Source: Blastocatellia bacterium
GTDB taxonomy: Bacteria; Acidobacteriota; Blastocatellia; UBA7656
Assembly: GCA_035607285.1 (NCBI GenBank)
Contig: DATNBZ010000020.1
Location: 4,505 to 68,504 of the forward strand
Reading direction: 5' to 3'
DNA: 64,000 bases
Every line of letters starts with the position of its first letter. Position 1 is the first letter of the stretch. The position numbers and the translations under genes are program-made. Shown one piece after another: positions 11,995-43,040 of the stretch. A model generated the notes under the pieces. The model had not been told where the DNA came from, did not search any database, and saw only the letters and a program-made list of their open reading frames with translations.

Positions 11995-12093
11995 TCTTTG
12001 CGTGCTTTGCGGACCTTTGCGAGCTTTGCGTTAAACGAATTTCTGCTTGAAAGAGCGATACGTTTAACGCAAAGCTCGCAAAGCACGCAAAGG
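11995..12093. repeat. Palindromic intergenic element, family 2 (CTTTGCGAGCTTTGCG arms)
   Basis: 'ctttgcgtgctttgcggacctttgcgagctttgcgttaaacg' ... 'cgtttaacgcaaagctcgcaaagcacgcaaagg'; copies also at 27631, 33931 and 42943. Confidence 0.7.
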
Positions 12094-12125
12094 CATACTT
12101 CAATGACTAGCCCAAAGGAGTCGTA

Positions 12126-12524
12126 GTGACCAAACAAGCAAGCGGAGCCTTCGACGTGAAGGTAATTCCTCATACTGACGACGAACCCATCGAACCGACC
12201 ATCGGCAGGATGATTATCGACAAGCAGTATCACGGCCCTCTCGAAGGAACCGGCAAAGGCCAGATGCTGACGGGCGGCACCGACGTGCAGGGTTCGGGTG
12301 TCTATGTGGCGATCGAACGAGTCAACGGGACACTGGACGGCCACAGCGGCACTTTCTTACTGCAGCACGGCGGCGTAATGACGCGCGGCGTCCCGCAGCT
12401 CACGATCACCGTGGTTCCGGATTCAGGAACCGGTGATCTGGTTGGGCTCATGGGCACGATGATGATCAACATCGTCGATGGAAAACACTTTTATGAATTC
12501 GAATACACGATTACCAAATCGTAA
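12126..12524 (+). CDS. Conserved hypothetical small beta-rich protein (possibly DUF3224-like)
   Basis: GTG start 5 nt after AAGGAG RBS; 132 aa; no recognisable catalytic motifs. Confidence 0.55.
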   Translation: MTKQASGAFDVKVIPHTDDEPIEPTIGRMIIDKQYHGPLEGTGKGQMLTGGTDVQGSGVYVAIERVNGTLDGHSGTFLLQHGGVMTRGVPQLTITVVPDSGTGDLVGLMGTMMINIVDGKHFYEFEYTITKS

Positions 12525-12578
12525 TAAGACTCGTGCGAATCTTCCGCTGAGTTTTGCGCGCGGCCGAGAGGTAGTTTC

Positions 12579-13421
12579 ATGAAGTTCGGTTTGTTTGGGA
12601 TCAACTTTGGTGTAGCGGGCGACGTCAACGCGATGATCCACATCGCGAAGGCCGCCGAGGCAGCCGGGCTCGAATCGGTGTGGACCGGTGAGCACGTCGT
12701 GCTTCCTGACCCGCGTGTGGCGCCCTCGCCTTCGGATCCTCAGACTCCGCTTCTCGATCCCGCGGTGGCGCTCAGCCATATTGCCGCGCACACTTCGCGG
12801 CTACGACTTGGCACGGGTGTGATTATCCTGCCGCAACGCAACCCACTGGTTCTTGCAAAGGAGCTTGCGTCGGTCGATGTCGTTTCGCAGGGCCGGCTGA
12901 TCTTCGGTTTAGGAGCGGGCTATCTCGAACCGGAATTCCGGGCGCTCGGCGCGCCTTTCGAAGACCGAGGCGCGGTGACAGACGAAGCCATCGAGGCAAT
13001 CAAGGCTCTTTGGACGATGGAGAAGCCCGCTTACAAAGGCCGGTTCTTTTCATTCGAAGGCATCGACGCGCAGCCTCGTCCGGTACAGAAGCCGCACCCG
13101 CCGATTGTCGTCGGCGGGATGAGTCGCAGCGGAGCGAAACGCGCCGCCCGATATGGAAACGGCTGGTACGGCTTTCTCACTGATCTTGAAGCGACCGCCC
13201 AAAGCATCGAATGGATTCGAGATTACATAGCAGGCGGTGCGCGTCCCGACGAACTGGGCGAAGTCGAGATATCGGTTACGCCCCCGATGCGGCTGACGAC
13301 TGCGGTAGTAGATAAGTACGCCGAGATCGGCGTGCATCGGCTCATCCCGATGTCGAACGCAACGTCGTTGGGCGAGGTCCTTCGGTTGGTGGACGATATC
13401 GGTGAGATCGCGTCGCGGTGA
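12579..13421 (+). CDS. LLM-class (luciferase-like) flavin/F420-dependent oxidoreductase
   Basis: 'MKFGLFGINFG...AAEAAGLESVWTGEHVVLP' TIM-barrel LLM signature; GAGGT RBS. Confidence 0.85.
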   Translation: MKFGLFGINFGVAGDVNAMIHIAKAAEAAGLESVWTGEHVVLPDPRVAPSPSDPQTPLLDPAVALSHIAAHTSRLRLGTGVIILPQRNPLVLAKELASVDVVSQGRLIFGLGAGYLEPEFRALGAPFEDRGAVTDEAIEAIKALWTMEKPAYKGRFFSFEGIDAQPRPVQKPHPPIVVGGMSRSGAKRAARYGNGWYGFLTDLEATAQSIEWIRDYIAGGARPDELGEVEISVTPPMRLTTAVVDKYAEIGVHRLIPMSNATSLGEVLRLVDDIGEIASR

Positions 13422-13475
13422 AATGGCTGCCGAAAACGTAGCGTCACTAACTCCCGGAGTGGTGTAACAGTATTT

Positions 13476-13563
13476 TGCTCCCCCGCGTCCTCGGCGTCCC
13501 TGCGGTTCTCTTGATCGGTGTTGGGGATCAACCGCAGAGGACGCAGAGGACGCCGAGGGGCAA
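13476..13563. repeat. Palindromic intergenic element, family 3 (GCGTCCTCGGCGTCCCTGCGGTT ... AACCGCAGAGGACGCAGAGGACGC)
   Basis: Inverted arms around a 20-bp loop; related copies at 15567, 38379, 50112 and 55925. Confidence 0.65.
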
Positions 13564-13672
13564 CGCACGATGTCCGCTCCCTAACTCCAAAAAGATGGTG
13601 TATTGTCTGCCGATCGACATATAATGCCAAAGTAAGCTTGAGCCGCAACAGAGGCGTGACGGAGTTGCAATC

Positions 13673-14245
13673 GTGGAAACCCTGCCGAAACTAACAAGCG
13701 CAGACCTGGGACTCTTGCCGGAGGACGGCAAACTGTACGAATTGATCGATGGAGAACTCTACGTGTCTCGACAACCGTCCTGGGATCATCAGTATTCGTG
13801 TGTTCGCTTGGCCAGATTTCTAGATGAATGGAATGAGCAGGCTGACCTCGGAGTTGTTAACGCCGCGCCCGGTGTGATCTTTGCCGAAGATGATGATGTC
13901 GCTCCCGACCTGGTTTGGATAAGTCACGGCAAGCTAAGCACTGCGCTTGGTGAAGACCGAAAACTCCACTCCGCTCCTGAGTTGGTCATTGAAGTGCTAT
14001 CGCCCGGCTTCGCCAACCAGCAGCGTGATCGGCAGGCAAAACTGAAACTCTACAGCCGGCGCGGAGTGGTGGAATACTGGATCGTGAACGGACTAGAACA
14101 TGAAGTGGAGGTCTATCGCCACGACGGGATCAGCTTACGCTTTTGCGTGACACTTGGTGGTGAAGATCTCCTGGAGTCGCCCTTGTTGCCAGGATTCTCC
14201 TGCCGCGTGAGCAAGCTCTTCTTCGAGGGTTCACCGGGGGCCTAA
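13673..14245 (+). CDS. Uma2-family (DUF820) putative endonuclease
   Basis: 'ELVIEVLSPGFANQQRDRQAKLKLYSRRGVVEYWIVN' PD-(D/E)xK-like Uma2 signature; GTG start. Confidence 0.8.
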   Translation: METLPKLTSADLGLLPEDGKLYELIDGELYVSRQPSWDHQYSCVRLARFLDEWNEQADLGVVNAAPGVIFAEDDDVAPDLVWISHGKLSTALGEDRKLHSAPELVIEVLSPGFANQQRDRQAKLKLYSRRGVVEYWIVNGLEHEVEVYRHDGISLRFCVTLGGEDLLESPLLPGFSCRVSKLFFEGSPGA

Positions 14246-14418
14246 GCAGCACAATACTCATGCTGCTTCTGGGAAACTGATTTCCCGCAAGTGGACACAG
14301 CCACAAAAGGGGCCCGCCCGGGCTCGACCTAACACGAATCATTTAAGCACTTATCGGTACGAACTTTCTGGCACGCGGCTTGGCTAACAAGCAGCCTTGT
14401 ACTAGTGAGGTATTAGTC

Positions 14419-15565
14419 ATGTCTGCTGTAGTTCCTGCTGCTCCGCGAACCCTGATCGCCGACGATCAACCCGACGTGCTTGAAGCGCTCCGCCTCCTGC
14501 TGAAAGGCGAAGGCTACGAGACCCACGCGGTTACCACCCCCTCGGATGTGATCAAGGCCTTGAAGGCTAATGACTTTGATCTGTTGTTGATGGATCTGAA
14601 CTACGCGCGTGACACGACGTCGGGTCAGGAAGGGCTCGACCTGTTGTCACGAGTCCAGGCCGTCGACAGCACGCTTCCCATAGTTGTCATGACTGCGTGG
14701 GGAAGCGTCGAGCTTGCAGTCGAAGCGATGCGCCGGGGTGTGCGGGATTTCGTGTTGAAGCCCTGGGAAAACAATCGGCTGCTCACGATCCTACGGACTC
14801 AAATCGAGATGGGTTACGCGATGCGCAAGACAGCGCGGCTCAAGACCGAACAGGAGCGCGAGCTTGTCGAAGCGCGAGCCATTCAGCGGCGGCTTTTGCC
14901 AACCGAGATTCCTCAGATCGACGGCGGCCGAATCGCCGGCGCGTGGAGACCGGCTCGCACGGTGAGCGGCGACTACTTTGATGTGTTGAAGTTCAGCGAG
15001 ACTCGAGCCGCCCTGTGCATCGCAGACGTTTCAGGCAAGGGAATGCCCGCGGCCCTGTTGATGTCCAACGTGCAGGCCGCCGTTCACTCGTTCGCTTCCG
15101 AGACCGTTTCGCCATCCGAGTTGTGCGCGAAGGTGAACCACGTTGTGTCGGCGAGCACGGGCGAACAAGTTCATCACGTTCTTCTACGGCGTCGTGGACA
15201 CCGGAGAGAAGACGCTGACGTACACCAACGCGGGTCATAACGCGGGAATTCTCCTTCGCAACGACGGCTCGCTCGAGAGGCTCGAGCCGGCTGATGCAGT
15301 GCTCGGTCCATTTCGTAGTTGGAATTACACTGAAGCGAAGATTGAACTGTGTTCCGGCGATCGGCTTTTGCTGTTCACCGATGGGGTTACCGAGTTAAGA
15401 AACGCGGCGGCGGATGAGTTTGGCGAAGACCGTCTGATTGAATTGCTGATTCAAAATCGAGAGCTGGAAGCCGAGCAATTGCGGGATCGAATCGTGCAGG
15501 CCGTGGTGGATTTCAGCGGCGGCGAGTTCCAGGACGACGCGACGTTGCTGGTGCTGCGCGCGTAA
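14419..15565 (+). pseudogene. Response-regulator receiver + PP2C/SpoIIE (RsbU-like) phosphatase gene interrupted by a frameshift near 15165-15175
   Basis: Receiver domain (DDQPDVLE...LLMDLNYA...) and the first half of the PP2C domain in frame 1 end at 15240; the conserved 'KFITFFYGVVDTGEKTLTYTNAGH' continuation is in the +1 frame (ORF 15143-15565). A one-base indel around 'ggcgaacaag' would join them. Confidence 0.65.
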
Positions 15566-15566
15566 T

Positions 15567-15635
15567 CGCGTCCCCTGCGGTTTTCCGGCATCAGTCCGAG
15601 ATCAAACCGCTGAGGACGCAGAGGACGCTGAGGGT
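15567..15635. repeat. Palindromic intergenic element, family 3 (short copy)
   Basis: 'gcgtcccctgcggtt'...'aaccgctgaggacgcagaggacgc'. Confidence 0.6.
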
Positions 15636-15802
15636 TAGCCGTTTTATTCGGTGAGGCTGCGCTCTAACCGTTCCGCTGAGAGGCCGCTTCGTCACACGAA
15701 ATTGCATTTCATCACAAACCACTTCTCCTGGAGCCGTCGGATTTGCATTCTCGTGTCGAATACCGAGACGTTCGACGACGACGATTAAGACGACCGATTC
15801 TT

Positions 15803-17116
15803 ATGAGAACCAAAGTGAGTATTATCGCGCTCGTGGCGGCGCTTGGTTTGGCGGGGCTGACATCGGCGCCGGCGGACCCCAGCGACGACCCGCCAAAGAC
15901 CGCGCGATACTATCGCCAGCAAGCCGCGGCCGCTTACAAGGCGAAGGACTATGCGCTGGCAATCGACAACCTGAAGAAGGCTCTCGAGTTGATCCCGGAT
16001 CACCCAACCCTGTTTTACAACATCGCTGCAATCTCAGCCCTCCAGGGGAAGAAGTCCGATGCGATTGCCGGACTAACCAAAGTCGCCGCGATGGGTCTGG
16101 CGCTGCATCCTGAAAAGGACGGCGACTTTGATTCGATCAAAGACAGTGATGAGTTCAAGAACGTGCTCAGGCGGTTCGAGAGCAACAACGCGCCGGTAAT
16201 AAACAGCGCGACCGCGTTTACGATTCACGAAAAAGGACTGATCACCGAAGGCCTGGCTTATGATCCCGTGAGCGAGACCTTCTTTGTCAGCAGCGTTCAC
16301 AAAAGAAGGATTCTCGCCGTGAACAAGAACGGCGAAGCGAAAACCTTCGCCGGCGAACAAGCCGGGCTATGGAGCGTCCTCGGCATGAAGGTCGATGCGA
16401 AGCGGCGGCTGTTGTGGGCTACTACGACTGCGTTTCCGCAAATGGTCAACTTCAACAAGGACGAAGAGAACACTTCCGCAGTTCTGAAGTTTGATTTGAA
16501 AACCGGCAAGCTCATAAAACGATACGTGCTGCCCAACAAACCAAAAGGGCACGGGCTAGGCGATCTGACCATCGACTCGAACGGCAATGTGTTCACGACC
16601 GACAGCCTGACTCCGGCGGTCTACGTCATCCATCCCCAAAAGGATGAAGAGAAGGATGAAATCGAATTGTTTCTCGAGAACGACGGATTCATCTCGCCCC
16701 AGGGACTCGCGTTCTCCGGCGACGAACGGCACCTCTTCATGGCAGACTATTCAACCGGCCTCTTCGATATTGATGTTCGAACAAAGAGGGTCGTGCATCT
16801 GCCGCCGCTCGAAGGCGCGACGCTGCTGGGAATAGACGGGTTGTACTTTTACGGAGGCAACCTGATCGGCGTGCAGAACGGAGTAGCGCCGTGGCGATTG
16901 GTGCGAATAGTCCTGACGGATGACTTCAAACGCGTCGAACGCTTGCAGGTGATCGAAGCCAACAATCCGGTGTTTGATGAACCAACGCTTGGGGTGATTG
17001 TTAGAGACAGCTTTTATTTTATTGCTAACAGCCAGTGGGGGCTTGTCGACGACAAGGGACAACTCGGTCCGGCGGACAAGCTCGCTGATCCAGTTGTTCT
17101 GAAGATGAAATTGTGA
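15803..17116 (+). CDS. Secreted TPR-repeat / SMP-30-gluconolactonase-LRE-like beta-propeller protein
   Basis: Signal peptide 'MRTKVSIIALVAALGLAGLTSAPA', TPR-like helical segment, then propeller-like repeats; start taken at MRTK (15803) rather than ORF-track start 15743. Confidence 0.7.
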   Translation: MRTKVSIIALVAALGLAGLTSAPADPSDDPPKTARYYRQQAAAAYKAKDYALAIDNLKKALELIPDHPTLFYNIAAISALQGKKSDAIAGLTKVAAMGLALHPEKDGDFDSIKDSDEFKNVLRRFESNNAPVINSATAFTIHEKGLITEGLAYDPVSETFFVSSVHKRRILAVNKNGEAKTFAGEQAGLWSVLGMKVDAKRRLLWATTTAFPQMVNFNKDEENTSAVLKFDLKTGKLIKRYVLPNKPKGHGLGDLTIDSNGNVFTTDSLTPAVYVIHPQKDEEKDEIELFLENDGFISPQGLAFSGDERHLFMADYSTGLFDIDVRTKRVVHLPPLEGATLLGIDGLYFYGGNLIGVQNGVAPWRLVRIVLTDDFKRVERLQVIEANNPVFDEPTLGVIVRDSFYFIANSQWGLVDDKGQLGPADKLADPVVLKMKL

Positions 17117-18609
17117 GCGCGCTAAGAGGACGACTCTTGAAAAGTGTTTGGCTGACGATCGGGCTGTTGCTAACCTCAGCCGTATTACCCGCTCAATCGG
17201 CCGCCCAGGCGCCGCCGCGGAAGGGAATAAGCATCATTGCCTTGACTCACGTCACGGTGATCGACGGCACAGGTGCGCCTCCCAAATCCGACGTTACCCT
17301 TGTGCTCGCCGGCTATCGCATCGCGGATATCGGAAAGGCCATCCCGATTCCCCATCAGGCCAGAATCATCGATGCGGCCGGTTCATTCGTCATCCCGGGT
17401 CTCTGGGACATGCACGCCCATCCGGACGATCCCGAGTTGTGGCCTGTCCATCCAGGTGAACAGGAAAAGGCATCGCTGCTTACGCTGCTGATCGCGAATG
17501 GAGTCACGGGAATTCGCGACATGGGCGGCGATCTGAAATTGCTTCAGAACTGGAGAAGCCGCATAGGCGCAGGCGTGCTGATCGGACCTCACATAAGAGC
17601 ATGCGGCCCGTTGCTTGACGGCCCTAACCCGATGTGGCCCGGCTCAATTGCAATAACAAACGCGGAACGGGCTCGACAAGCCGTGCGCGATCTGAAAAAG
17701 CAACGCGCGGATTTTATAAAAGTATATTCAGGCCTTTCGCGCGATGCTTTCCTGGCGATCGCCGATGAAGCTAAGCAGCTCAGGATTCCTTTCGCGGGGC
17801 ACGTGCCGGATTCGATAACCCCCGCCGAAGCCTCCGATGCCGGGCAAGCAAGCGAAGAGCATCTGCTGCAAATAATCGAATCGTGCTCGGACCGCGAGGC
17901 GGTAAGGGACAAACTCGATTCCCTGCGCGGGGCTTCACCGATTGAGCGACGGCGCGCTTATGTCGAGACGATGCTGGCGACGTTCGATCAGAAAAAGGCC
18001 GACGCGCTGTTTGCCAAATTCGTGAAGAACAACACCTGGGTAACTCCTACGATTGTCGCATGGCAAAACAATGTCTCGTTTGAAGATCTTTATCCGAAGT
18101 CGATCGATCGCCTTAAGTACATGCCGCGTTACATAATTGAGTACTGGGACCCGAAGAACAATGTGCATCTCAAAAACCGGTCTCCGGAGCGTATCGCTGT
18201 TGAAAAGAAACTGGTGAACAAGTATCTGGAAGTCATCGGCGCAATGAATCGCGCGGGAGTGAAGCTGATGACCGGCTCGGACTTCGGCGCGAACCCGCTT
18301 CTGTTTCCCGGCTGGGGGGTTCATGACGAGATGGCGCTCTTCGTGAAGGCGGGGCTGACTCCGATGGAGGCGATTCAAACCGCAACCAAAAACCCGACAA
18401 CATTTTTTGAGGTTAACAACTCAGTCGGCACCGTCGAGAAAGGGAAGATAGCCGATCTGGTGGTGCTCAGCGCGAACCCGTTGGAGGACATCAACAACAC
18501 GCGCAAGATCACAGCAGTTTTCTTCGGCGGTAAAATGTTCGACCGCGCCGAGCTGAACCGTATGCTGAATTCTGTTGCAGCGTCCGCCAACCAAAAGGAT
18601 AAGAAATGA
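17113..18609 (+). CDS. Amidohydrolase-family metal-dependent hydrolase (secreted)
   Basis: Signal peptide, 'PGLWDMHAHP' metal-binding HxH motif; ATGA overlap with the upstream gene. Confidence 0.85.
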   Translation: MSALRGRLLKSVWLTIGLLLTSAVLPAQSAAQAPPRKGISIIALTHVTVIDGTGAPPKSDVTLVLAGYRIADIGKAIPIPHQARIIDAAGSFVIPGLWDMHAHPDDPELWPVHPGEQEKASLLTLLIANGVTGIRDMGGDLKLLQNWRSRIGAGVLIGPHIRACGPLLDGPNPMWPGSIAITNAERARQAVRDLKKQRADFIKVYSGLSRDAFLAIADEAKQLRIPFAGHVPDSITPAEASDAGQASEEHLLQIIESCSDREAVRDKLDSLRGASPIERRRAYVETMLATFDQKKADALFAKFVKNNTWVTPTIVAWQNNVSFEDLYPKSIDRLKYMPRYIIEYWDPKNNVHLKNRSPERIAVEKKLVNKYLEVIGAMNRAGVKLMTGSDFGANPLLFPGWGVHDEMALFVKAGLTPMEAIQTATKNPTTFFEVNNSVGTVEKGKIADLVVLSANPLEDINNTRKITAVFFGGKMFDRAELNRMLNSVAASANQKDKK

Positions 18610-19175: not shown

Positions 19176-19187
19176 GAAGTATCTGAA

Positions 19188-19837: not shown

Positions 19838-19920
19838 GGAAATTTGCGATTGCCGATTTGCGATTGCCGAGTTCTCAGGAAATCGGAAATCGGAAATCGG
19901 AAATCGGCAATCGGAAATCC
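19838..19920. repeat. Heptamer (GAAATCG)n tandem array facing an imperfect inverted copy (TTTGCGATTGCCGA x2)
   Basis: 'ggaaatcggaaatcggaaatcggaaatcggcaatcggaaatcc' and upstream 'gggaaatttgcgattgccgatttgcgattgccgag'. Confidence 0.5.
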
Positions 19921-19937
19921 AGTTAACTTGAATCTTC

Positions 19938-23315: not shown

Positions 23316-23510
23316 CAGTCGTTCAGAGTACCGAAGCGGGTGTTCAGAGTATCGAAGCGGGTGTTCAGAGTACCGGCTTTAGCCGGGTAGTGCCTCTCGC
23401 TGTCGACCGTCTCAGTTGCCGCTGTCGAACGTTTCAGTTGCATTAGGCACTACCCGACTAAAGTCGGTACTCTGAACGCCCGCGTTACTCTGAACGCCCG
23501 CGTTGCCGGC
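23316..23510. repeat. Composite palindromic element (CTGAAC family), second full copy
   Basis: 'gttcagagtaccgaagcgggtgttcagagt...ccggctttagccgggtagtgcct ... aggcactacccgactaaagtcggtactctgaacgcccgcgttactctgaacgcccgc'. Confidence 0.7.
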
Positions 23511-26825: not shown

Positions 26826-26918
26826 CATGTATGGGCGGCCCTCCGTGGCCGCCCCTCAGTGGTGCCGAAGAGAGTTCGACTTCGACTGAGGGGCGGCCAC
26901 GGAGGGCCGCCCATACAT
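26826..26918. repeat. Palindromic intergenic element, family 1 (CATGTATGGGCGGCCCTCCGTGGCCGCCCCTC ... GAGGGGCGGCCACGGAGGGCCGCCCATACATG)
   Basis: Near-perfect 32-bp inverted arms; copies at 32757, 42047, 55212 and 60048. Confidence 0.75.
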
Positions 26919-26946
26919 GCACTAGAGAACCAAAAGGAGAAGACAG

Positions 26947-27582
26947 ATGAAACACAAAGGATTGAAATTAGCGATTGCGATGTGTGCAATGCTCTTTTGC
27001 GTAGCGGCGGAGCTACAGGCGCAAGACGCTCCAAAGAAACCTCAACCCAAGTACTTCGTTTTCGGCAGCGACTCGCCCGAGCGCGGCACCACGCGTGTCG
27101 GCTACTGGAGCAGCGAAAAGAACATGGGCGCCGGACAACTCGCGATCGACTACGGCCGTCCGGTTTGGAAGAAGGATTACGAGGATACGGCGAAGTTCGA
27201 CGCGATGACTAAGGGCAAAGTCTATCGGCTCGGGAGTAATTTCTGGACTACGCTTGATACGGATATGCCGCTGGTGATCGCGGGGAAGACTATTCCGGCA
27301 GGCTCGTGGTACCTGGGCTTGCATCGATCCACAGACGGAGCCACCTGGAGCCTGGTGTTCATCGATCCGGCCAAGGCTCGTGCGGCGCACGTTGATGCTT
27401 CCGAGATCGAACGCGCTCCGATCGCTTTCAAGGCGCCGATGACCGCTGACCCGGGCGCCGAGATGAAAGAGAAGCTTACGATTGATCTGGTATTCAAAAA
27501 AGGTGACTTTCAGAACGTGACGCTCAAGATCGGGTGGGGAAAGATTCAATTGAGCGCCCCGGTTCAAGTTCCGATGTCGTGA
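26947..27582 (+). CDS. DUF2911-like secreted protein
   Basis: Signal peptide; 'AIDYGRPVWKK...VYRLGSNFWTTLDTDMPLVIAGKTIPAGSWYLGL' resembles the DUF2911 core. Confidence 0.6.
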   Translation: MKHKGLKLAIAMCAMLFCVAAELQAQDAPKKPQPKYFVFGSDSPERGTTRVGYWSSEKNMGAGQLAIDYGRPVWKKDYEDTAKFDAMTKGKVYRLGSNFWTTLDTDMPLVIAGKTIPAGSWYLGLHRSTDGATWSLVFIDPAKARAAHVDASEIERAPIAFKAPMTADPGAEMKEKLTIDLVFKKGDFQNVTLKIGWGKIQLSAPVQVPMS

Positions 27583-27583: not shown

Positions 27584-28822
27584 CTAATACTCAGTCATGC
27601 TCGTATTAACGAGCCGATAGGTGAAGAAACCGCTTTGCGAGCTTTGCGGTACTTTGCGAGCTTTGCGTTCAACGTATCTCTCTTTCTCGAGCGGATTCCT
27701 TGCGCAAAGCTCGCAAAGGACCGCAAAGCTCGCTGCGTCGGGTGGTTTCTTTCGAGTGCGTGCGCTCAGCGCTTCTTTCCAGAGCGCGGGATAATCCGTG
27801 AACCCGCCGTCTATCCCGTAGCCTAGATATAGCTGAATGTCCGCGATGATGTTTGCTCGGACCGTCGAGCCGTTCGGTTGCTTTTCATCCAATGGACGAC
27901 GCGCGTTCGCGCTAGTCGAACCGCGAAACGTGTATGGGTGAATCACCAACCCGGCTTTGTGAAACGTCGCGACATCGTCGGCACTCTTGAGCAGGCTCTT
28001 ACTCGGGCCGGCTCCTTGAGCGTAAGAAGCGATCTCCTCGGCTAGCTTCGGTGTGACGATCGCGGTGTCCTTCTCGCGTCCGTGTGTTTCCATCGGCAAG
28101 AGCTGAACGCGTGGATAGCCCGACGCCAACTCGCGCATTCGAAGCAACGCTTCCTTGTAAAACGACTGAATGAAAATGCGATTGTGCTGAGAAGGACGGT
28201 CGAAGCCATGCGCTTTGAGCACAGCCGCAAGCTTCTCGGCAGTATCGAAGCCAAGCGATTTGTAAAACGCGAAGTGTTTCAACTCGATGTACAACCCTGC
28301 GCGATTGCCTACGAACCTGATTGTCTCTTCCATCGTCGGCACGCGTTGTCCGACATAAGCCGGATTAGCAGCAAACGGATTTGCTCGATTGAACCACGAG
28401 CCCGCGTCGAGACGTTTGATCTCGGCGAGCGTGAAGTCGACGGTGTACCAGCCAGGTTTCGGTTTGCCTGTTTCTTCCGGATCGCGAAGCGTCGTTCGAT
28501 CGGGAAATACCTCGGCCGCGTTCGTCGTTCGAGCGAGGTCGGGATCGTGAAGGCAGATCAGCACGCCGTCTTTTGTGACCTGCAAGTCCTGCTCGACGAA
28601 ATCCGCGCCTTGCTCCATAGCGAGCTTGTATCCGGCTAGCGTGTGTTCAGGCGCGTATCCCGAAGCGCCTCGATGCGCGACACACAACGGCTTGTGCGAA
28701 GAGCGAGCCTGCCGCGTCGTTCCTCGAAGCGTAGCCGGAACGCCGATCGACATAGACATAGCAACGACAAAAATAGAAAGCCGGCTTATGCGGCGTATCG
28801 CGCTTTGAAGATTGGTGTTCAC
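27584..28822 (-). CDS. Glycerophosphodiester phosphodiesterase (GDPD) family protein, secreted
   Basis: 'CVAHRGASGYAPEHTLAGYKLAMEQGADFVEQDLQVTKDGVLICLHD' GDPD catalytic signature; probable GTG start giving signal peptide 'MNTNLQSAIRRISRLSIFVVAMSMS'; the 3' end (27584-27750) runs through a family-2 repeat. Confidence 0.8.
   Translation of the reverse strand: MNTNLQSAIRRISRLSIFVVAMSMSIGVPATLRGTTRQARSSHKPLCVAHRGASGYAPEHTLAGYKLAMEQGADFVEQDLQVTKDGVLICLHDPDLARTTNAAEVFPDRTTLRDPEETGKPKPGWYTVDFTLAEIKRLDAGSWFNRANPFAANPAYVGQRVPTMEETIRFVGNRAGLYIELKHFAFYKSLGFDTAEKLAAVLKAHGFDRPSQHNRIFIQSFYKEALLRMRELASGYPRVQLLPMETHGREKDTAIVTPKLAEEIASYAQGAGPSKSLLKSADDVATFHKAGLVIHPYTFRGSTSANARRPLDEKQPNGSTVRANIIADIQLYLGYGIDGGFTDYPALWKEALSARTRKKPPDAASFAVLCELCARNPLEKERYVERKARKVPQSSQSGFFTYRLVNTSMTEY
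27631..27734. repeat. Palindromic element, family 2, embedded in the 3' end of the GDPD ORF
   Basis: 'ccgctttgcgagctttgcggtactttgcgagctttgcgttcaacg' ... 'cttgcgcaaagctcgcaaaggaccgcaaagctcgc'. Confidence 0.7.
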
Positions 28823-30112: not shown

Positions 30113-30124
30113 CGCACGAGATCA

Positions 30125-30245
30125 ACCGCTGATCTTCGCTGACTGCGTAACGCTGATCCACGCAGATCAGCGGTGTTCAGCGATTCGAAAGTCAGCGAGG
30201 ATCAGCGTTATGCAGTCAGCGAAGATCAGCGCTTGATCCCCCTTC
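30125..30245. repeat. Cluster of GATCAGCG/CGCTGATC direct and inverted repeats
   Basis: 'caaccgctgatcttcgctgactgcgtaacgctgatccacgcagatcagcggtg...gaggatcagcgttatgcagtcagcgaagatcagcgcttgatc'. Confidence 0.45.
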
Positions 30246-32756: not shown

Positions 32757-32911
32757 GACATGTAGGGGCGGCTCTCCGTGGCCGCCCCTTAGTGGGTTGA
32801 CGGTGTGTCTCCGGTCGCGACTGAGGGGCGGCCACGGAGGGCCGCCCCTACATGTGGTAAAAGGGTCGCCCCTACATGTGGTAAAAGGGTCGCTAAAAGG
32901 GCCGCCCCTGC
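32757..32911. repeat. Palindromic element, family 1, with extra GGTAAAAGGGTCGCCCCTACATGT direct repeats
   Basis: 'acatgtaggggcggctctccgtggccgcccct' ... 'gaggggcggccacggagggccgcccctacatg' followed by two 'tggtaaaagggtcgc' units. Confidence 0.7.
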
Positions 32912-33918: not shown

Positions 33919-33930
33919 TAAGTGTTTCTT

Positions 33931-34030
33931 CTTTGCGAGCTTTGCGGTCCTTTGCGAGCTTTGCGTTTAACGAATTTGAAAGAAAAATACGTTAGCGCAA
34001 AGCTCGCAAAGGACCGCAAAGCCCGCAAGG
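33931..34030. repeat. Palindromic intergenic element, family 2
   Basis: 'ctttgcgagctttgcggtcctttgcgagctttgcgtttaacg' ... 'cgttagcgcaaagctcgcaaaggaccgcaaagcccgcaagg'. Confidence 0.7.
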
Positions 34031-34032
34031 AT

Positions 34033-35904: not shown

Positions 35905-36125
35905 TTAGTCTCCTCGAACTAAGGTAACGGTGAGCGAGTAATGCTCGACGCCGAAAACAAGAGTTACCTGATCGGTTCTTATCTCACACCTCGCACCGCG
36001 CTGCAAACGTTGCGTGATCTGTCGAAGCACATGCCGGGGCGCTGGGCGACGCGAGCGCAAGCCGGTGATTCTCAAGAACCCGCACAAGTGCTAGAATGTG
36101 CTCACGACTTGAAACGGAGAGTCCA

Positions 36126-36386: not shown

Positions 36387-36388
36387 CC

Positions 36389-36868
36389 ATGCCCGAACAC
36401 ACCCCGCGTGTGGTCTTTGATTGCAATGTCTTTGTTCAGGGAATAGCCAACCGTCGCAGCGCGGCTCGAGCGGCGATGCGCTTATTCTTCGATGGCGAGA
36501 TCTCGCTATTTGTCAGCGAGGCGATTCTGCGCGAAGTCCGCGACGTACTAAATCGTGAAGAGCTTCGGCGCAAGCTGCCAGCCATTAAGGATCGCCTCGT
36601 CAACGCTCTCCTCCTAAAACTTGAAGGAAGAGCCATCCTCACTACCAACGTTCCCGAAGAGCACCAGTACGACCGCGATCCAAATGATGAGAAGTATCTA
36701 AATCTCGCGATCGTCTCTAGCGCTTCCTATCTGGTAAGCAAGGACGATGACCTCTTAGACTTAATAAGCACCAACACGGATGTTGCGCTCCGGTTCCGCA
36801 ACCCGTTTCTACAGATTCTTACCGCAAGCGACTTCATTACGAAGATGAAGTCGCAGAGCACCAGCTGA
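36389..36868 (+). CDS. PIN-domain protein (putative toxin, TIGR00305-like)
   Basis: 'RVVFDCNVFVQGI' N-terminal PIN signature with acidic residues. Confidence 0.75.
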   Translation: MPEHTPRVVFDCNVFVQGIANRRSAARAAMRLFFDGEISLFVSEAILREVRDVLNREELRRKLPAIKDRLVNALLLKLEGRAILTTNVPEEHQYDRDPNDEKYLNLAIVSSASYLVSKDDDLLDLISTNTDVALRFRNPFLQILTASDFITKMKSQSTS

Positions 36869-36898
36869 TTTCGTACCAGACAGGCGCGCCAAAGTACA

Positions 36899-38275
36899 CT
36901 AAGCAGGCCGTTCCTTCGAAATCGTCATCGTCTCCGGATTCCACGCGTAAGCCTGGCTCTCGAATAAGCTTCGATTAGTCAGCAAAGCGGCGCCCGCCGC
37001 GCGGAAGCCGAACACCGCGTCTTCGACGACCGGTTTTCGCGAGCGCATCCCGTCAAAGAACGCATTGAAGTGATCGACTGAATCGCTGTAGCCCGACGGC
37101 GGCGCGTAAGTATCCTGCGTCGACGCGTTGATGTCCTGCTTGTTCTCCGGATACTTCGTGCGGTACTCCTTCAGGAAGGCTTCCTGTGTCGCCTTTGTAA
37201 AAGTATCGATCGTGTAGCCGGGCTCTTTTGCTCGTTGCTTCTTTGCGACCGTCACGACGCCTGAGATCGTCATCACACCCTCGCTGCCGATGAAGCGAAA
37301 GCCGGAGCTTTCATTGGCGCCTGCCGCGAAATTGACTCTCAGAGCCAGATTGAAGGCGGGCGTACTCGCGGTCTTCGGATAATCGCAAAGCGCCAGCATC
37401 ACATCAGGCACGTCGCGGCCGTCGTTCCAGTAGCGCAGCCCACCGGTTGCCATCACCCTGGACGGCCCTGTAGTACCGACTACAAAGTGCAAACCTGAGA
37501 ACAGGTGAACGAACAAATCGCCCGCGACTCCGGTGCCGTAGTCGCGATAGTTTCTCCATCTGAAAAATCTGGTCGGATCGAACGGGCGCTTCGGCGCTTC
37601 GCCGAGGAAGCGATCCCAATCAACCGTTCCCGGCGAAGCGTCGGGCGGAATCGAATACTGCCACGCGCCGATCGCGCTGCTGCGGTCCCACCATGCTTCG
37701 ATCATGTTGAGTTCGCCGATTGCTCCGGATGCGAGCAGGTCTTTTGCTTTCTTGTAGACGATAGAGCTGACGCGCTGGCTTCCCACCTGAAATATCCGGC
37801 CGGTCTTTTTCGCTGTCTCGATTACGTGTTTGCCTTGTTCGAGCTGCTGCACCATGGGCTTTTCGCAATAGACGTCTTTACCCGCATTCATCGCGTCGTT
37901 CGAGATTCGCATGTGCCAGTGATCGGGCGTGGCGATGATGACCGCGTCGACGTCTGAACGCGCAAGCACTTCGCGATAATCGCGTGTGGTGAAGAGCTGG
38001 TTGCCCCAAATCTCTTTTGCGCGAGCGAGCCGCCCGTCGTAGAGATCGGCGACGGCGACGAGTTCTATTCCCGGGATCTTCAATGCCTCTCGCGTATCGC
38101 CCATGCCTTGCCCGCCGGCCCCGATGAGCCCGAGTCTGATTTTGTCGCTCGGCGCGACCGTCTTACTAGATTCGGACTTGTCCGCTGCGAGAATCGTTGT
38201 CGAAGTAGCCGCCGCCAGCGTCGTCGCCGTCGTCAGCTTGATGAAATCTCGTCGAGTTGTTCTTCCGGTATTCAT
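36899..38275 (-). CDS. Gfo/Idh/MocA-family NAD(P)-dependent oxidoreductase with TAT signal
   Basis: 'MNTGRTTRRDFIKLTTATTLAAA' TAT signal, 'RLGLIGAGGQG' Rossmann motif; start at M33 of the ORF-track ORF (GGAGA RBS). Confidence 0.85.
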   Translation of the reverse strand: MNTGRTTRRDFIKLTTATTLAAATSTTILAADKSESSKTVAPSDKIRLGLIGAGGQGMGDTREALKIPGIELVAVADLYDGRLARAKEIWGNQLFTTRDYREVLARSDVDAVIIATPDHWHMRISNDAMNAGKDVYCEKPMVQQLEQGKHVIETAKKTGRIFQVGSQRVSSIVYKKAKDLLASGAIGELNMIEAWWDRSSAIGAWQYSIPPDASPGTVDWDRFLGEAPKRPFDPTRFFRWRNYRDYGTGVAGDLFVHLFSGLHFVVGTTGPSRVMATGGLRYWNDGRDVPDVMLALCDYPKTASTPAFNLALRVNFAAGANESSGFRFIGSEGVMTISGVVTVAKKQRAKEPGYTIDTFTKATQEAFLKEYRTKYPENKQDINASTQDTYAPPSGYSDSVDHFNAFFDGMRSRKPVVEDAVFGFRAAGAALLTNRSLFESQAYAWNPETMTISKERPA

Positions 38276-38378
38276 CGCCCGTCTCCTTCTCGACGCAGGC
38301 TCTTGCGGTCTGCGCGATTCTGATTGCAATGTTTCAAACCCAATCTGGTTCGAAGGCCCAACTTTTCGCAAGCCGTTC

Positions 38379-38515
38379 GCTCACATTCGCGTTTTTTCCT
38401 CTGCGTCCTCGGCGTCCTCTGCGGTTGATTCCGAGCCACTGAGCAGGCAAAACCGCGGAGGACGCCGGGGCCGCAGAGGACTGCTTCCTGACAACACGCT
38501 AATACGCCACTGCCC
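38379..38515. repeat. Palindromic element, family 3, long (about 135 bp) copy
   Basis: Near-identical over its length to 55925-56058 ('gctcacattcgcgttt...cctctgcggttgattccgagc.actgagcagg.aaaaccgcggaggacgccgggg.cgcagaggactgctt.ct..caacacgctaata'). Confidence 0.7.
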
Positions 38516-38647
38516 AACTTTCGGGTTGGTTGCTCGTTGAGTGGAAAGCCTACTATTATCCTCCTGCGCGGTCGGTTTGCAATCAGAAATTGCGCAGGTT
38601 GCAATCAGAAATTGCATGGCTCACACACTTTTGTCGGGAGAGATCGA

Positions 38648-39607
38648 ATGTTCAAGGAAAGCGTTGTAGCAGTTCTGTGCCTGATAATGCCGTCGGCGTT
38701 GGTGTCCGGGCGCACGGCTTCGTCCGCGAATCCGGCGGCTGACGATAAGATAATCGGACGTTGGGACATGAAGGTCCAGGACGCGAGCGGCGCGACTTAT
38801 CCGTCGTGGTTTGAAGCGACTCGCGAAGGCGGAAAGCTCGCGGGCCGATTTGTTGGACGGTTCGGCAGCCAGCGACCCATCAAGTCCATCGAGTACGCCG
38901 ACGGCCATCTCAAATTCAGGTTGCCGATTCAGTATGAGAGTCGAAAGACCGATCTCGAGTTTGAAGCAAAGCTGGTTGGCGATCGTCTCGAGGGTACGGC
39001 TCCTGATGCCGATGGGAAGCCGATGAAATGGACCGCGGTGCGCGCGCCGAAGCTCGAACGCAAATCGTCGCCGCGATGGGAGAAGCCGATCACGCTGTTC
39101 AACGGACGCGATATGAGTGGTTGGCATGTGCGCGACGCGTCGAAAGCGGATACGTGGCGAGTCGCGGCTGGTGTGATGGAGAATACGCCTCACGGGACCG
39201 ACATCGTCACCGACCAGAAGTTCACCGACTTCAAGCTGCACGTCGAGTTCAAGATGGTCGAGAAGAGCAATAGCGGGGTCTACCTGCGCGGGCGCTATGA
39301 GGTCCAGATCGAAGACAACTTCGGACAAGAGCCCGAGAGCCACCGCATCGGAGGCATCTACGGTTTCGTCACCCCTTCGAGCAATCCATGTAAGAAGGCC
39401 GGCGAGTGGCAGACCTACGATATAACCCTGATCGGCCGCACGGTGACGGTAGTCTTGAATGGTACGGCTATCATCGAGAAGGCCGAGATTCCGGGCATCA
39501 CCGGAGGCGCGCTCGATAGCAACGAAGGCGAGGCCGGCGCGATAATGCTTCAGGGCGATCACGAGAAGATTTACTATCGCAACATCGTGATCACTCCAGC
39601 AAAGTGA
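38648..39607 (+). CDS. DUF1080-domain protein (3-keto-disaccharide hydrolase family), secreted
   Basis: Concanavalin-like DUF1080 C-terminal half 'GVYLRGRYEVQIEDNFG...YYRNIVI'; start at MFKE (38648) after the GGGAGAG RBS. Confidence 0.8.
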   Translation: MFKESVVAVLCLIMPSALVSGRTASSANPAADDKIIGRWDMKVQDASGATYPSWFEATREGGKLAGRFVGRFGSQRPIKSIEYADGHLKFRLPIQYESRKTDLEFEAKLVGDRLEGTAPDADGKPMKWTAVRAPKLERKSSPRWEKPITLFNGRDMSGWHVRDASKADTWRVAAGVMENTPHGTDIVTDQKFTDFKLHVEFKMVEKSNSGVYLRGRYEVQIEDNFGQEPESHRIGGIYGFVTPSSNPCKKAGEWQTYDITLIGRTVTVVLNGTAIIEKAEIPGITGGALDSNEGEAGAIMLQGDHEKIYYRNIVITPAK

Positions 39608-39939
39608 GCCAAACAGTCATGCCACAAAGGCACGAAGACACAAAGCTCCACGAAGAAAGGCCCTGGTGATTCTTGGCGCTTTCGTGTCTTCATGGCATTT
39701 CTTCCGCAACTCAAAGATTGCATCACTACAAAAAAAACAAACCAACATGCACCGCACGGCGTCTAAGACAACGTGTGCCTGAGGAACCTACGTCCGAGTG
39801 GTCTTTTGTTGGCACAGACGAGCAGTCAAACAATTAACCCGCCCCAACCTCATCGCCGGCAGGTGCAAGCCATCTCTTATGCGTCACGGACGTTCCGACC
39901 CGCGCAAACGTCTAATTCAGTCCTATCAGGAAAAGGTGA

Positions 39940-42045
39940 ATGACCGACTACACACTTCAAACCAGCCTACCCGCTCGTAACAGAATGGAAGCAACACGCG
40001 TCTCTCCTATTGCTCGATGGATTCGAGGATTTGCGCTTTATGGAGTTTGGTTAGTGATGCTCACGATGCCGGCTCACGCGCAAGAGCTGAGCAATGACAC
40101 TTTGAGTTTGCGGTTGAGCGTCACGCCTGAAAACATTCCCGTAATCGATGAGGCGGTATGGAAGGCGACGGGCCAGGCGGTGTTTCAGGACATGGGCACG
40201 CCTGATGGCCTCAGCGCGTGGGTTCCGTCGGGGTTGATTCCAGCAGCCCAGACGACCCCGCCAGCCTGGGTTATCACACAAGGCGATGACCTCACGACCG
40301 CCGAAGCCACCTGCGAGCTTTCAAACAAGATTCTCATTACCTGGATCGTTGAGCTCCCGAATCGAGGGCAGCTCTTTCGCGTGCATATCCGGCTGACTAA
40401 TGGCGGCAAGAAAGCGCAGGTCGTCGATTCGTTTCCCGCGTGGTCGGCCAATTGGAACGTCGCCGGACAATCGCAATGGGCGCGCTGGTGGAAATCTCTC
40501 GAGTACAACCGCGTCGAGGAAGCATTGACGGCCACCAGTCAGATTCGTTTCGGTAGCCGGCTGCATAGCTCCGATGTCGTCGCGGAAGGAGTCAATCCAT
40601 ACTGGGTTGTCGGCGGTCCCGATCGTCGCATCTATTTCGGTTTGCAATGGTGCGGCGGCTGGAGCGCGAGACTCCAGGGACTTGATAATGGCTTTACGTT
40701 TTCGGTTGGTTTGCCCTCTGAAGAGACGCAACTGGTTCTCAAACGGGGCGAGACCATTGAAGGCCCCGCGCTGCTGGTCACGCCAATGCCCGCGTCTGAC
40801 GACCTCAGCGGCCGATCGACCTGGATGAGCCAGCGATACTCGCTGGGGCGCATTCTGTATTCCGGTCCTTCGGTGTCATTCCCGTTGACTTACAATCATT
40901 GGTATGCGGCTCGCGCGGACGTGGATGAAGACTTCTTGAATAGACAAATAGCCGCGATGTCCCCCTATTCGTTTGATGCTTTCGTTATCGACGCCGGATG
41001 GTTTGCCGAAGGGCGTTGGAAGCCTGACTCCGCAAAATTTCAACCCGATGAGTTCGTAGCCATGCTGGCTTCTCTCAAAGAGAACGGCATAAGACCCGGT
41101 CTCTGGTCGACTCCGCAATACGTGAGCGAAGACGACGATGAATCAGCCTTGACTATAGAACAGCCGCCGGTCGCCTCGAACTTCTTAAGCGGTTACCTGG
41201 TTGATATGGCGCAACCCGAATTCCAGGGTTATCTGACGGACCATGTCCAAATCCTGCGAAACAAGTATTCCATCGAGTACTGGAAATACGATCAGCCCTT
41301 ATTCACCGATCAGTCGCGCGCGGGGGCGATGAAGAATGTCATCGGTTTCCAGAACGCAATGAAAGCCGTGCGTAACGCCAACCCCGATCTCATGATTGAG
41401 AATTGCTTGAACGGCGGGCGAATGATCAACGAGTTCACTCTGCTGACCACGCAGGCGACCTGGCTCAAGGATCTTGGCGCGAAAGTGCCGGACCCGCGTG
41501 GGAACATCTCAGTCTCGCTGAACGCGCTGGATTTTGTCTTCCCGTGGGCAGCGCTTCGCTTCACGATCAATCTGGATCGCATGGATCAAGACGATGACGA
41601 AGCGCTGCGGCTCTACTGCCGCAGCGCGATGGCTGGCATATGGGGCTTTTCCACGGACCTGTCGAAGATCAGCGACCGGCAGCAGGGCATTGTGCTGAAG
41701 GAGATTGAGAATTATCGCCAGTTGAATCATCTGAAGTTTTCCTGCCAATATGACCTGCAATTGCCGAGCGATACGGCCGACGTCGCAGGTGTAACCTTCT
41801 ACAGCAGAAGACGGTTCAATGCGGGAGTCTTGCTTTATCGGTGGCAGCGAGACGGAGCGTTCGACCAGCGAGTCAGTCTGTCCAGGCTGAAGTCCGGCGT
41901 GACCTACCACGTAGTGGATGCAGATACCGGGACCGAGATCATCGCCAGCGGCAGTGATCTGATCAGCAATGGCGTTACCGTACCTTTCAGTGCGGAGCGC
42001 CAGTCGGCGTTGCTATTCATAGAGCCGGTCGTACAATCTCCCTAG
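39940..42045 (+). CDS. GH36-like alpha-galactosidase family glycoside hydrolase
   Basis: 'FVIDAGWF', 'GLWSTP', 'IEYWKYDQ' (KxD nucleophile motif) and 'IENCLNGGRMINEF' match the GH36 catalytic-core pattern; start could be M16 (39985). Confidence 0.65.
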   Translation: MTDYTLQTSLPARNRMEATRVSPIARWIRGFALYGVWLVMLTMPAHAQELSNDTLSLRLSVTPENIPVIDEAVWKATGQAVFQDMGTPDGLSAWVPSGLIPAAQTTPPAWVITQGDDLTTAEATCELSNKILITWIVELPNRGQLFRVHIRLTNGGKKAQVVDSFPAWSANWNVAGQSQWARWWKSLEYNRVEEALTATSQIRFGSRLHSSDVVAEGVNPYWVVGGPDRRIYFGLQWCGGWSARLQGLDNGFTFSVGLPSEETQLVLKRGETIEGPALLVTPMPASDDLSGRSTWMSQRYSLGRILYSGPSVSFPLTYNHWYAARADVDEDFLNRQIAAMSPYSFDAFVIDAGWFAEGRWKPDSAKFQPDEFVAMLASLKENGIRPGLWSTPQYVSEDDDESALTIEQPPVASNFLSGYLVDMAQPEFQGYLTDHVQILRNKYSIEYWKYDQPLFTDQSRAGAMKNVIGFQNAMKAVRNANPDLMIENCLNGGRMINEFTLLTTQATWLKDLGAKVPDPRGNISVSLNALDFVFPWAALRFTINLDRMDQDDDEALRLYCRSAMAGIWGFSTDLSKISDRQQGIVLKEIENYRQLNHLKFSCQYDLQLPSDTADVAGVTFYSRRRFNAGVLLYRWQRDGAFDQRVSLSRLKSGVTYHVVDADTGTEIIASGSDLISNGVTVPFSAERQSALLFIEPVVQSP

Positions 42046-42046
42046 A

Positions 42047-42135
42047 CTTGTAAGGGCGTCCCTCCGTGGGCGCCCCTCTTTGCGGCTCACTTCGATCACC
42101 GATGAGGGGCGCCCGCGGAGGGACGCCCTTACATG
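42047..42135. repeat. Palindromic element, family 1 variant (GGGCGTCCCTCCGTGGGCGCCCCTC arms)
   Basis: 'cttgtaagggcgtccctccgtgggcgcccctc' ... 'gaggggcgcccgcggagggacgcccttacatg'; its terminal ATG is the ORF start of the next gene. Confidence 0.65.
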
Positions 42136-42975
42136 TCCATCACGATATCGTCAAAACGACATTCGCCACAGACGCTTGTTGCCTTCGTTCGCGCGATGGC
42201 GCAACATGTTCGTCAAATGATCTTCCGTCAAATCATCTTCCGGTACATACATCGACTGATCGCAACGTTCATCCTTGCAGTGCTTCTTGCGTTCGCACCT
42301 GCGGTATACCCGAGTCGGTTGGCGCTGACGCAGACTATCGAGCGTCAGGAGCCGGCTGATGCACAACGCATCACTCGCCCGACGAGCAAGCCTTACACCG
42401 GCGATCTGTCGATCTTTGAAGACCCCGAGCGCGACGAGAGGCTGCAGATAAATCGCGTGATGGAAATCTTGAAGATCAAGCAGGGTTCCACCGTTGCGGA
42501 TATCGGCGCCGGTTCCGGTTGGTTCACGGTGAGAGCGGCCAGGCGCGTTGGCACAACCGGCAATGTGTACGCGGTGGAAATAAATCGCGAATTTCTGGAG
42601 CACATCGAAGCGCGCGCAGGTAAGGAGAAGCTCTCGAACGTTCACGCGGTGCTTGGCAAAGAGGACGACCCATTGCTTCCGCGCGAGAGCCTCGATGCCG
42701 CGCTGATCCTGAAGACCTACCACGAGATCGCCCAACCGATTCTGTTGCTCTCGCATCTTCGCGAATCTATGCGCGCCGGAGCGCTGCTTGGCATCATCGA
42801 TAAAGACGGCAACGGCAGGAATCACGGAATCAATCGGGAGGTGGTGATCAAAGAAGCGGCCAAAGCGGGCTTCTCACTGGTTGACCAGTATGACTTTGTG
42901 AAGCCGGACGGCATGGATTATTTCCTCGTCCTCCGTCCTTCGGGTGCTTTGCGGTCCTTTGCGCCTTTGCGCTGA
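42133..42975 (+). CDS. Class I SAM-dependent methyltransferase
   Basis: Motif I 'VADIGAGSGWFT'; N-terminal start codon lies in the family-1 repeat and the last about 10 codons lie in a family-2 repeat, so both ends are uncertain. Confidence 0.7.
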   Translation: MSITISSKRHSPQTLVAFVRAMAQHVRQMIFRQIIFRYIHRLIATFILAVLLAFAPAVYPSRLALTQTIERQEPADAQRITRPTSKPYTGDLSIFEDPERDERLQINRVMEILKIKQGSTVADIGAGSGWFTVRAARRVGTTGNVYAVEINREFLEHIEARAGKEKLSNVHAVLGKEDDPLLPRESLDAALILKTYHEIAQPILLLSHLRESMRAGALLGIIDKDGNGRNHGINREVVIKEAAKAGFSLVDQYDFVKPDGMDYFLVLRPSGALRSFAPLR

Positions 42976-43040
42976 GTATCGGATTTTGCTCCCTCAATAC
43001 CCAATACTCAACGCAAAGGCGCAAAGGACCGCAAAGCACG
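42943..43040. repeat. Palindromic element, family 2
   Basis: 'gtgctttgcggtcctttgcgcctttgcgctgagtat' ... 'atactcaacgcaaaggcgcaaaggaccgcaaagcacgc'. Confidence 0.7.

Follow-up and report, generated by a model that had tools for sequence, protein, structure and literature searches.

The 64,000-nucleotide stretch of the Blastocatellia bacterium contig DATNBZ010000020.1 analyzed here (positions 4,505 to 68,504; hereafter the window) carries four palindromic elements of one repeat family, family-2, numbered c1 to c4. With a probability of roughly 0.6, we regard them as high-copy, non-autonomous, gene-less miniatures of a cassette that combines a GxxExxY nuclease gene with heptamer arrays in a Blastocatellia-type acidobacterium. 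The family evidently exists in many copies, and by alignment its arms match the ends of the cassette. The copies lodge just past stop codons and can fuse to the ends of open reading frames (ORFs).

All four palindromes were found where the original prediction had placed them, each about 100-165 nt long (Table 1). Their arms consist of 3-4 CTTTGCG heptamers with 1-3-nt spacers (period 8-10), followed after the loop by a reverse-complement arm of CGCAAAG units. Within the window, CTTTGCG/CGCAAAG clusters are confined to the four elements, as are all 11 matches to CTTTGCGNNCTTTGCG (at most one mismatch; 0.06 expected from shuffles). The paired arms span 26 nt in c1 (12015-12040/12058-12083, 96% complementary), 31 nt in c2 (27637-27667/27703-27733, 97%), 36 nt in c3 (33930-33965/33996-34031, 94%) and 52 nt in c4 (42937-42988/42995-43046, 88%). 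The left arm of c1 holds four units (CTTTGCG TG CTTTGCG GAC CTTTGCG AG CTTTGCG) and the right arm three; the arms of c4 read GTG CTTTGCG GTC CTTTGCG C CTTTGCG.

Loops measure 17-40 nt and contain no ORF. Those of c1 (TTAAACGAAT...ACGTTTAA), c3 and, when inverted, c2 are alike, and that of c4 differs. A TTAAACG centre had been ascribed to the whole family; it is present in c1 and c3, while c2 has TTCAACG and c4 a loop of the form CTGAGTAT...ATACTCAA. The description of the family as lower in GC likewise fits c1 and c3 only (0.48-0.56 for the four copies, 0.568 for the window). The conserved unit of c2 exceeds its palindrome and is placed at about 27590-27753 because the identity of its relatives covers about 150-160 nt, with the extensions AGTCATGCTCGTATTAACGAGCCGATAGGTGAAGAAACCG on the left and ..GGGTGGTTTCTTTCGAG on the right. 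In c4 the conserved unit reaches about 43076 through a 30-nt right extension, GGTTATTCAGCAACGCGGAATCCGAACACCACTAC (43047-43076), which ends in CTAC. Folding the four copies as RNA predicts energies between -54 and -88 kcal/mol for both strands, with z-scores from -7.6 to -15. Rfam 15 at gathering score gave no match in the window and no family over the arrays in 18 other loci, and no tRNAs were found in the window.

The proposal that this is a distinct repeat family with copies elsewhere held up. A scan of JGI metagenomes with CTTTGCGNGCTTTGCGGNNCTTTGCG returned at least 118 loci totalling 873 kb, of which most come from a single soil metagenome and the WNFR01 assembly; the window itself matches the ENA soil-metagenome contig ERZ27256655:k141_5421600. 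The related contigs are of soil origin and Blastocatellia type; the loci were picked by sequence pattern and their ORFs called by a simple procedure. Below, F stands for a CTTTGCG array and R for a CGCAAAG array, F..R meaning that the CTTTGCG arm comes first. The listed loci contain 90 F..R hairpins like those of the window versus 2 of opposite order, with 2-7 units per arm, often in unequal numbers. At least 20 c2-type copies occur in soil contigs, with 91-96% identity over about 150-160 nt, and 14 relatives of c4 were found; the c2-type and c4-type subfamilies show 80-96% identity, loops and flanks included. Full c4-type copies have an inverted left partner (xTAGTGTTCGGATTCTGCGTTGC...) that is not present in the window copy. 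Of 13 c2-type copies outside the window, 12 are placed precisely within the loop of a GTAGGGGCGGCC...GGCCGCCCCTAC hairpin, where GGAG may have been duplicated.

In the alignment of c4-type copies, the cores of the heptamers show no variation, and spacer positions undergo compensatory change on both sides (column 29/84: CG 4, UA 3, GC 1). Invariant cores next to covarying spacers argue for a constraint on the core sequence and not on pairing alone. Contig L149 is syntenic with 9493-16724 of the window at about 88-91% identity and holds an orthologue of c1 with identical arm sequence, each genome being without one whole unit, in different arms; the loops differ by 5 substitutions. Unit number thus changes by gain or loss of whole units. 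The site of c3, upstream of the proline racemase gene, has orthologues that hold a family-2 copy in four contigs (L179, L234, L204 and L239).

Screening array pairs 400-4000 nt apart for enclosed ORFs identified the cassette. Between an F-array and an R-array lies an ORF of 125-140 aa (127 aa in relatives of the window), assigned to TIGR04256 GxxExxY/PF13366 PDDEXK_3 (E = 1e-38 to 1e-42; PF13366 E = 7e-40), which places it among PD-(D/E)XK nucleases. The Blastocatellia-type form occurs in seven contigs (L130, L197, L215, L132, L148, L169 and L141) at one orthologous locus, with the gene always present, and its F-array reads CTTTGCG TG CTTTGCG GTC CTTTGCG T CTTTGCG. The arms in the window are 88-97% identical to the cassette ends over 32-52 nt, in the same orientation. 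GxxExxY homologues in related soil contigs are annotated as Blastocatellia.

To remove the bias of selecting by arrays, 8 independent loci were retrieved by GxxExxY protein homology alone, and all 8 are flanked by TCTCA-CGCAAAG... and ...CTTTGCG-TGAG arrays. Five of the 8 have a compact R-gene-F order (smallest about 480 bp); the others show whole R..F hairpins beside the gene or mixes, and in L528 the gene stands between whole hairpins. As a control, arrays at both ends were found in 25 of 2843 ORFs. At 4 of 4 loci, a second GxxExxY clade (82-87% identical to the L043 protein) carries CACAAAG/CTTTGTG arrays whose ends are GCCAC...GTGGC, and a more distant member, L514, has CTTTGTG-type arrays. 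Two clades, each with its own array type, coexist in one genome (L025, L043), so that the array type follows the gene and not the host. GxxExxY genes and flanking arrays are thus associated across phyla, with an array unit that differs between the two sampled clades.

Proteins of the CGCAAAG clade share 49-80% identity across phyla. The catalytic residues D67 and E77-x-K79 are invariant, as is GPGLxExxY, and the PD-(D/E)XK motif is intact. The structure model is poor (predicted local distance difference test score, pLDDT, of 69), with weak fold resemblance to I-Bth0305I and Cas4 and no significant match. The GxxExxY family counts 29,072 representatives at 50% identity, and PDDEXK_3 has been listed as a family of unknown function with multiple transfers (PMC3424549). 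Topology agrees within lineages: Blastocatellia combine an F-gene-R cassette with F..R hairpins (90:2), and other phyla have mainly R-gene-F cassettes and R..F arrays (84:16).

Cassettes of other phyla (L516, L518, L522, L524, L526 and L530, also L519 and L528) tend toward polysaccharide-biosynthesis clusters, with epimerases, Bac_transf, glycosyltransferase 9 and UDP-glucose dehydrogenase, or toward gaps between ATP-binding cassette (ABC) transporter genes. In L516 and L518, at about 770-1000, 3-4 full R modules (each TCTCACGCAAAG..CGCAAAG followed by an A-rich tail) lie head-to-tail upstream of GxxExxY in an iteron-like arrangement. In L524, a 25-nt direct repeat, ACCCAAGAAAATCCTAAAGAAATTC (about 520-600 and 1030-1060), surrounds the cassette and may be an insertion or duplication scar.

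CTTTGCG arrays form a wider class. A scan of a genome collection for three CTTTGCG units with 1-3-nt spacers gave at least 120 loci, and those listed cover Acidobacteriota, Chloroflexota, Cyanobacteria, Planctomycetota, Verrucomicrobiota, Bacteroidota, Nitrospirota, several proteobacterial classes and others. Across these phyla the period is mostly 8, the polar flank is CTTTGCG-[T/G]-G-A-[A/G]-A and the dominant topology is R..F (84 versus 16). The window family has a comparable flank on the loop side, [C/T]TGAG[A/T]A or GTTAA/CGAA. In viral contigs (L240-L359), at least 120 loci contain CTTTGCG octamer arrays with an N-GAGA flank, often just upstream of start codons, and a homology search of viral contigs found just 3 GxxExxY loci. 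Chance, or a generic property of heptamers, was rejected with permutation controls: at least 49 viral loci contain CTTTGCG triples of period 8, compared with 7 and 2 for two permutations of matched composition, and permuted heptamers yielded mostly regular period-9/10 arrays.

The proposed location at gene 3' ends is real. Among 78 copies from the listed related contigs, with crude ORF calls, none lies inside a gene body. Of 52 copies between co-directional genes, 40 lie closer to the stop upstream than to the start that follows (p = 1.3e-4); the medians are 26 nt past the stop and 62 nt to the next start. The contexts of the copies are 67% co-directional, 19% convergent and 14% divergent, against a baseline of 64/19/17%. 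In the window, both neighbors of c1 are plus-strand genes by Pfam assignment. The c2 element lies between a DUF2911 gene (plus strand, stop at 27582) and a GDPD gene (minus strand; both by Pfam). For c3, an intergenic position between convergent genes had been claimed; both neighbors are in fact on the minus strand, with the DUF885 stop (34033) 2 nt away and the proline racemase start (33918) 12 nt away.

As noted originally, the copies at 27631 and 42943 overlap the 3' ends of ORFs. The GDPD ORF runs through the entire c2, so that its last 56 codons (27584-27753) are element-encoded, and the methyltransferase ORF stops at 42975, 39 nt into c4, with about 12 element-encoded codons (42937-42975). 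Direct reading of the sequence finds no stop codon in any frame of family-2 arms, which accounts for this read-through. Element insertion has remodelled the C-termini of both proteins, giving a 56-aa tail to GDPD and a tail of about 12 aa to the methyltransferase.

The suggested role as terminators did not survive in its canonical form. Of 186 hairpin flanks, 3.2% have 6 or more T among 8 nt inside the first 25 nt, equal to background, and since no U-tract follows, the copies are not canonical intrinsic terminators. Stems of 35-50 bp and a consensus scan at chance level speak against this role as well, and divergent intergenic regions are not depleted of copies. The consensus scan flagged none of the four hairpin stems in the window, its single hit at the elements being a chance-level 5-bp site in the right flank of c2 (27728-27743). 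Terminator-like sites in 11000-47000 numbered 17 versus 20.2 and 18 versus 17.9 in shuffled sequence, and hairpins followed by a U-tract do not seem to be the terminators on which this organism depends. The 3'-end location is thus accompanied by an absence of canonical terminator anatomy. The copies may nevertheless end transcription independently of a U-tract or protect the 3' ends of mRNAs.

We hypothesize that the GxxExxY nuclease multiplies gene-less copies in trans and that its recognition sites would be the invariant cores of the heptamers in hairpin or cruciform DNA. Copies may persist in 3' untranslated regions because this position is tolerated. When transcribed, they would form RNA duplexes of 35-50 bp that could serve as barriers at 3' ends or as sites of RNase III-type processing, rather than as U-tract terminators.

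Several points weigh against derivation from the nuclease cassette. No GxxExxY gene was found in the 64-kb window, and none was found in the fetched DNA near the listed viral arrays (at least 120 loci). None of the four window copies shows a target-site duplication, and no recent insertion came to light; c1, the one copy compared with its orthologue (in L149), is old and stable. To our knowledge, no transposase consists of a PD-(D/E)XK nuclease alone. The nesting of 12 of 13 other c2-type copies in GTAG-tagged repetitive extragenic palindromic (REP) hairpins, together with the GTAG-like outer arms of c4-type copies, implies that a tyrosine transposase could be the real mobilizer. Selection for sense-strand RNA is not apparent, with 86 G.U versus 82 A.C mismatches and no transcribed-strand signal. 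The loci were selected by pattern, and ORF calls were crude. Derivation from the cassette also leaves unexplained why the topology in Blastocatellia is inverted relative to other phyla.

The main rival, which we judge unlikely, holds that these are REPIN-type (REP doublets forming hairpins) or terminal-inverted-repeat (TIR) sequences moved by an IS200/IS605-like tyrosine transposase, either RAYT or one of the TIRYTs of Acidobacteria. In that case the CTTTGCG hairpin would be cargo or an expanded spacer in GTAG-tagged palindromes, and GxxExxY a passenger in one hairpin. TIR-associated tyrosine transposases with cognate repeat families are described in Acidobacteria (Di Nocera et al. 2013, PMC3733652), GTAG-tagged REP/REPIN-like elements abound in the window, and the nesting of c2-type copies fits this scheme, as do the boundaries of full c4-type copies (xTAGTGTTCGG.../...CCGAACACTAC). 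However, c1, c3 and the window copy of c2 have no GTAG flank, and the arms are not themselves palindromic REPs. A tyrosine transposase also does not explain why the same arrays accompany GxxExxY genes in other phyla, nor why array type tracks the GxxExxY clade. With an E. coli RayT sequence as query, tblastn found no RAYT in the window or related contigs, which is weak evidence.

Two further explanations are considerably less probable. Under one, the hairpins are 3'-end signals selected by the host (U-tract-independent terminators, mRNA stabilizers or operon insulators) that arise and lengthen locally through slippage of units and correction of palindromes, their likeness maintained by selection and gene conversion. 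The median distance of 26 nt past stop codons, the extremely stable folds and the whole-unit gain or loss at the conserved c1/L149 site suit this idea, and another signal may serve where canonical terminators are not enriched in the genome. Yet loops and non-palindromic flanks are 91-96% identical between copies at unrelated loci, which argues that whole elements were copied. Moreover, no U-tract is present, divergent intergenic regions are not depleted (14% versus the 17% baseline), there is no sense-strand G.U excess, and the cores are invariant where pairing alone would permit change. The other, which we find similarly hard to credit, treats the arrays as binding sites or homing targets and not as mobile DNA, with hairpins of independent origin; GxxExxY would be a selfish or homing-type ORF that invades existing array hairpins, or a regulator binding its own flanks. 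In its favor, the gene always lies in a hairpin 'loop' or between whole hairpins (L528), the cores are invariant, the nuclease motif is intact and the fold weakly resembles I-Bth0305I and Cas4. Against it, the fold search gave no significant match, and the Blastocatellia gene occupies one orthologous position (seven contigs) beside about 90 empty hairpins, implying that homing is not active in Blastocatellia.

Beyond family-2, the window contains other repeats (Table 1). Its long palindromes number at least 19 and belong to several families, so that dispersed hairpin repeats occupy much of the intergenic space and alter gene ends. The architecture of family-1 palindromes matches that of GTAG-tagged REP/REPIN elements, and c2-type copies of other contigs sit in such loops. 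The sister hairpin family has many soil-contig copies at 93-96% identity, and a Pelomicrobium metagenome-assembled genome (L089, 6410-6439) matches one 30-nt arm with 100% identity. At two intergenic sites of the block syntenic with L149, the window has TCCTCGGCG-type hairpins and L149 has none. Some of the long heptamer arrays form inverted pairs, and they resemble cyanobacterial short tandemly repeated repetitive (STRR) sequences. The palindrome at 57168-57298 has 52-nt arms that are 98% complementary, and copies occur in L123, L180 and L238 at 94-97% identity.

Table 1. Repeat elements of the window and cassette loci in other contigs (positions are those of the window; L numbers denote loci).
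Feature	Position or locus	Strand	Description
c1, family-2 copy	11995-12094	.	13 nt past the stop of a MacB/FtsX (ADOP-type) permease gene, 32 nt before a DUF3224 gene
c2, family-2 copy	27590-27753	.	hairpin core 27631-27735 plus conserved asymmetric extensions
c3, family-2 copy	33930-34031	.	units 4 + 3-4; loop type as in c1
c4, family-2 copy	42937-43076	.	hairpin 42937-43046 plus conserved right extension
Blastocatellia-type cassette, 515-617 bp			F-array, TTAAACG or CGAAACG, leader of about 50 nt with GGAGG, ORF, ..ATTCTCA[A/G], R-array
Loci retrieved by homology only	L516, L517, L518, L519, L522, L524, L526, L528		Thermodesulfobacteriota, Verrucomicrobiota, other metagenome contigs
Family-1 palindromes	26826-26919, 32758-32855, 42045-42137, 55211-55317, 60113-60217		arms are GGGGCGGCC-CTCCGT-GGCCGCCCC hairpins after GTAG
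Sister hairpin family	38397-38480, 50123-50190, 55942-56025, ~13476-13563, ~15567-15634		TCCTCTGCG/TCCTCGGCG 9-mer arms, F..R
Long heptamer arrays	1520-1574, 1673-1725, 19842-19918, 44574-44687		AACCCCG, GAACCCT, ATTTGCG/GGAAATC, GTTCAGG; at least 11 units
Long palindromes of other families	1406-1510, 23357-23483, 30120-30238, 57168-57298, 58320-58406		

A broader reading, which we hold tentatively and rate a little under even odds, is that GxxExxY genes with clade-specific inverted heptamer arrays constitute an unrecognized class of tiny selfish or domesticated elements across phyla, the nuclease multiplying gene-less hairpins. If true, the RAYT-REPIN system would gain a second counterpart with an unrelated enzyme, and this would account for short tandem intergenic repeats common to distant phyla, as the repeats would travel with the gene. 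The link offers the repeats a candidate mobilizing or recognizing enzyme and makes the 7-nt cores of hairpin arms a candidate substrate for GxxExxY. The searchable literature on CTTTGCG/CGCAAAG repeats, STRR hairpins, acidobacterial REPs and GxxExxY/PDDEXK_3 yielded no account of arrays associated with GxxExxY.

Among known systems, REPIN-RAYT pairs (REPtrons) resemble family-2 in having short extragenic hairpin repeats in hundreds of copies, most of them shortly past the ends of genes, one conserved locus (in the sampled contigs) whose gene is flanked by inverted repeat arms, and persistence at orthologous sites. Unlike in that system, the gene flanked by family-2 arms encodes a 127-aa PD-(D/E)XK GxxExxY protein instead of an HUH/Y1 transposase, tandem heptamer arrays take the place of GC-rich REP palindromes as arms, and mobilization is putative. 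REP/REPIN elements are defined as imperfect palindromes of 20-40 nt with a GTAG or CGTC end; c1-c3 are without GTAG, and the c4 extension ends in CTAC.

MITEs (miniature inverted-repeat transposable elements, e.g. Correia/NEMIS and Nezha) likewise share terminal inverted arms with a longer gene-carrying unit, measure 100-250 nt, are intergenic and are likely co-transcribed with neighboring genes. Family-2 has such shared terminal repeats (88-97% identity to the cassette ends), and its relation to the cassette recalls that of a MITE to its insertion sequence (IS) or of a REPIN to its RAYT. In contrast to MITEs, its arms make up nearly the whole element, and its gene-carrying unit of about 480-620 bp has no recognized transposase, the sole ORF being PF13366/TIGR04256. 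No target-site duplication was found at the window copies, and the candidates elsewhere are GGAG at c2-type copies in REP loops and the 25-nt direct repeat at the L524 cassette.

STRR heptamer tandem repeats, reportedly described by Mazel in 1990, are intergenic arrays of 7-nt units in 2-6 or more copies that occur in distant phyla near gene ends, as family-2 does. Family-2 differs in combining a 7-nt core with a period of 8-10, inverted pairs, a polar flank (N-GAGA/GTTAA) and a link to a gene family, and does not form the regular head-to-tail 7-nt array that defines STRRs. The TAACTGA (PMC4679880) and GGGNATC (PMC4692102) repeats are direct heptamer arrays with a regular period of 7 and no associated gene. 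Intrinsic terminators share with family-2 a stable, symmetric and potentially bidirectional hairpin right after the stop codon; the family-2 stem is 35-50 bp versus about 5-14 bp, its loop is 17-40 nt and it has no U-tract. With the GxxExxY cassette itself, the window copies share arms that carry the polar flank seen at the GxxExxY gene. Because their loops are 17-40 nt long without an ORF, and GxxExxY genes are absent from the window, we file them as gene-less derivatives and not as cassettes.

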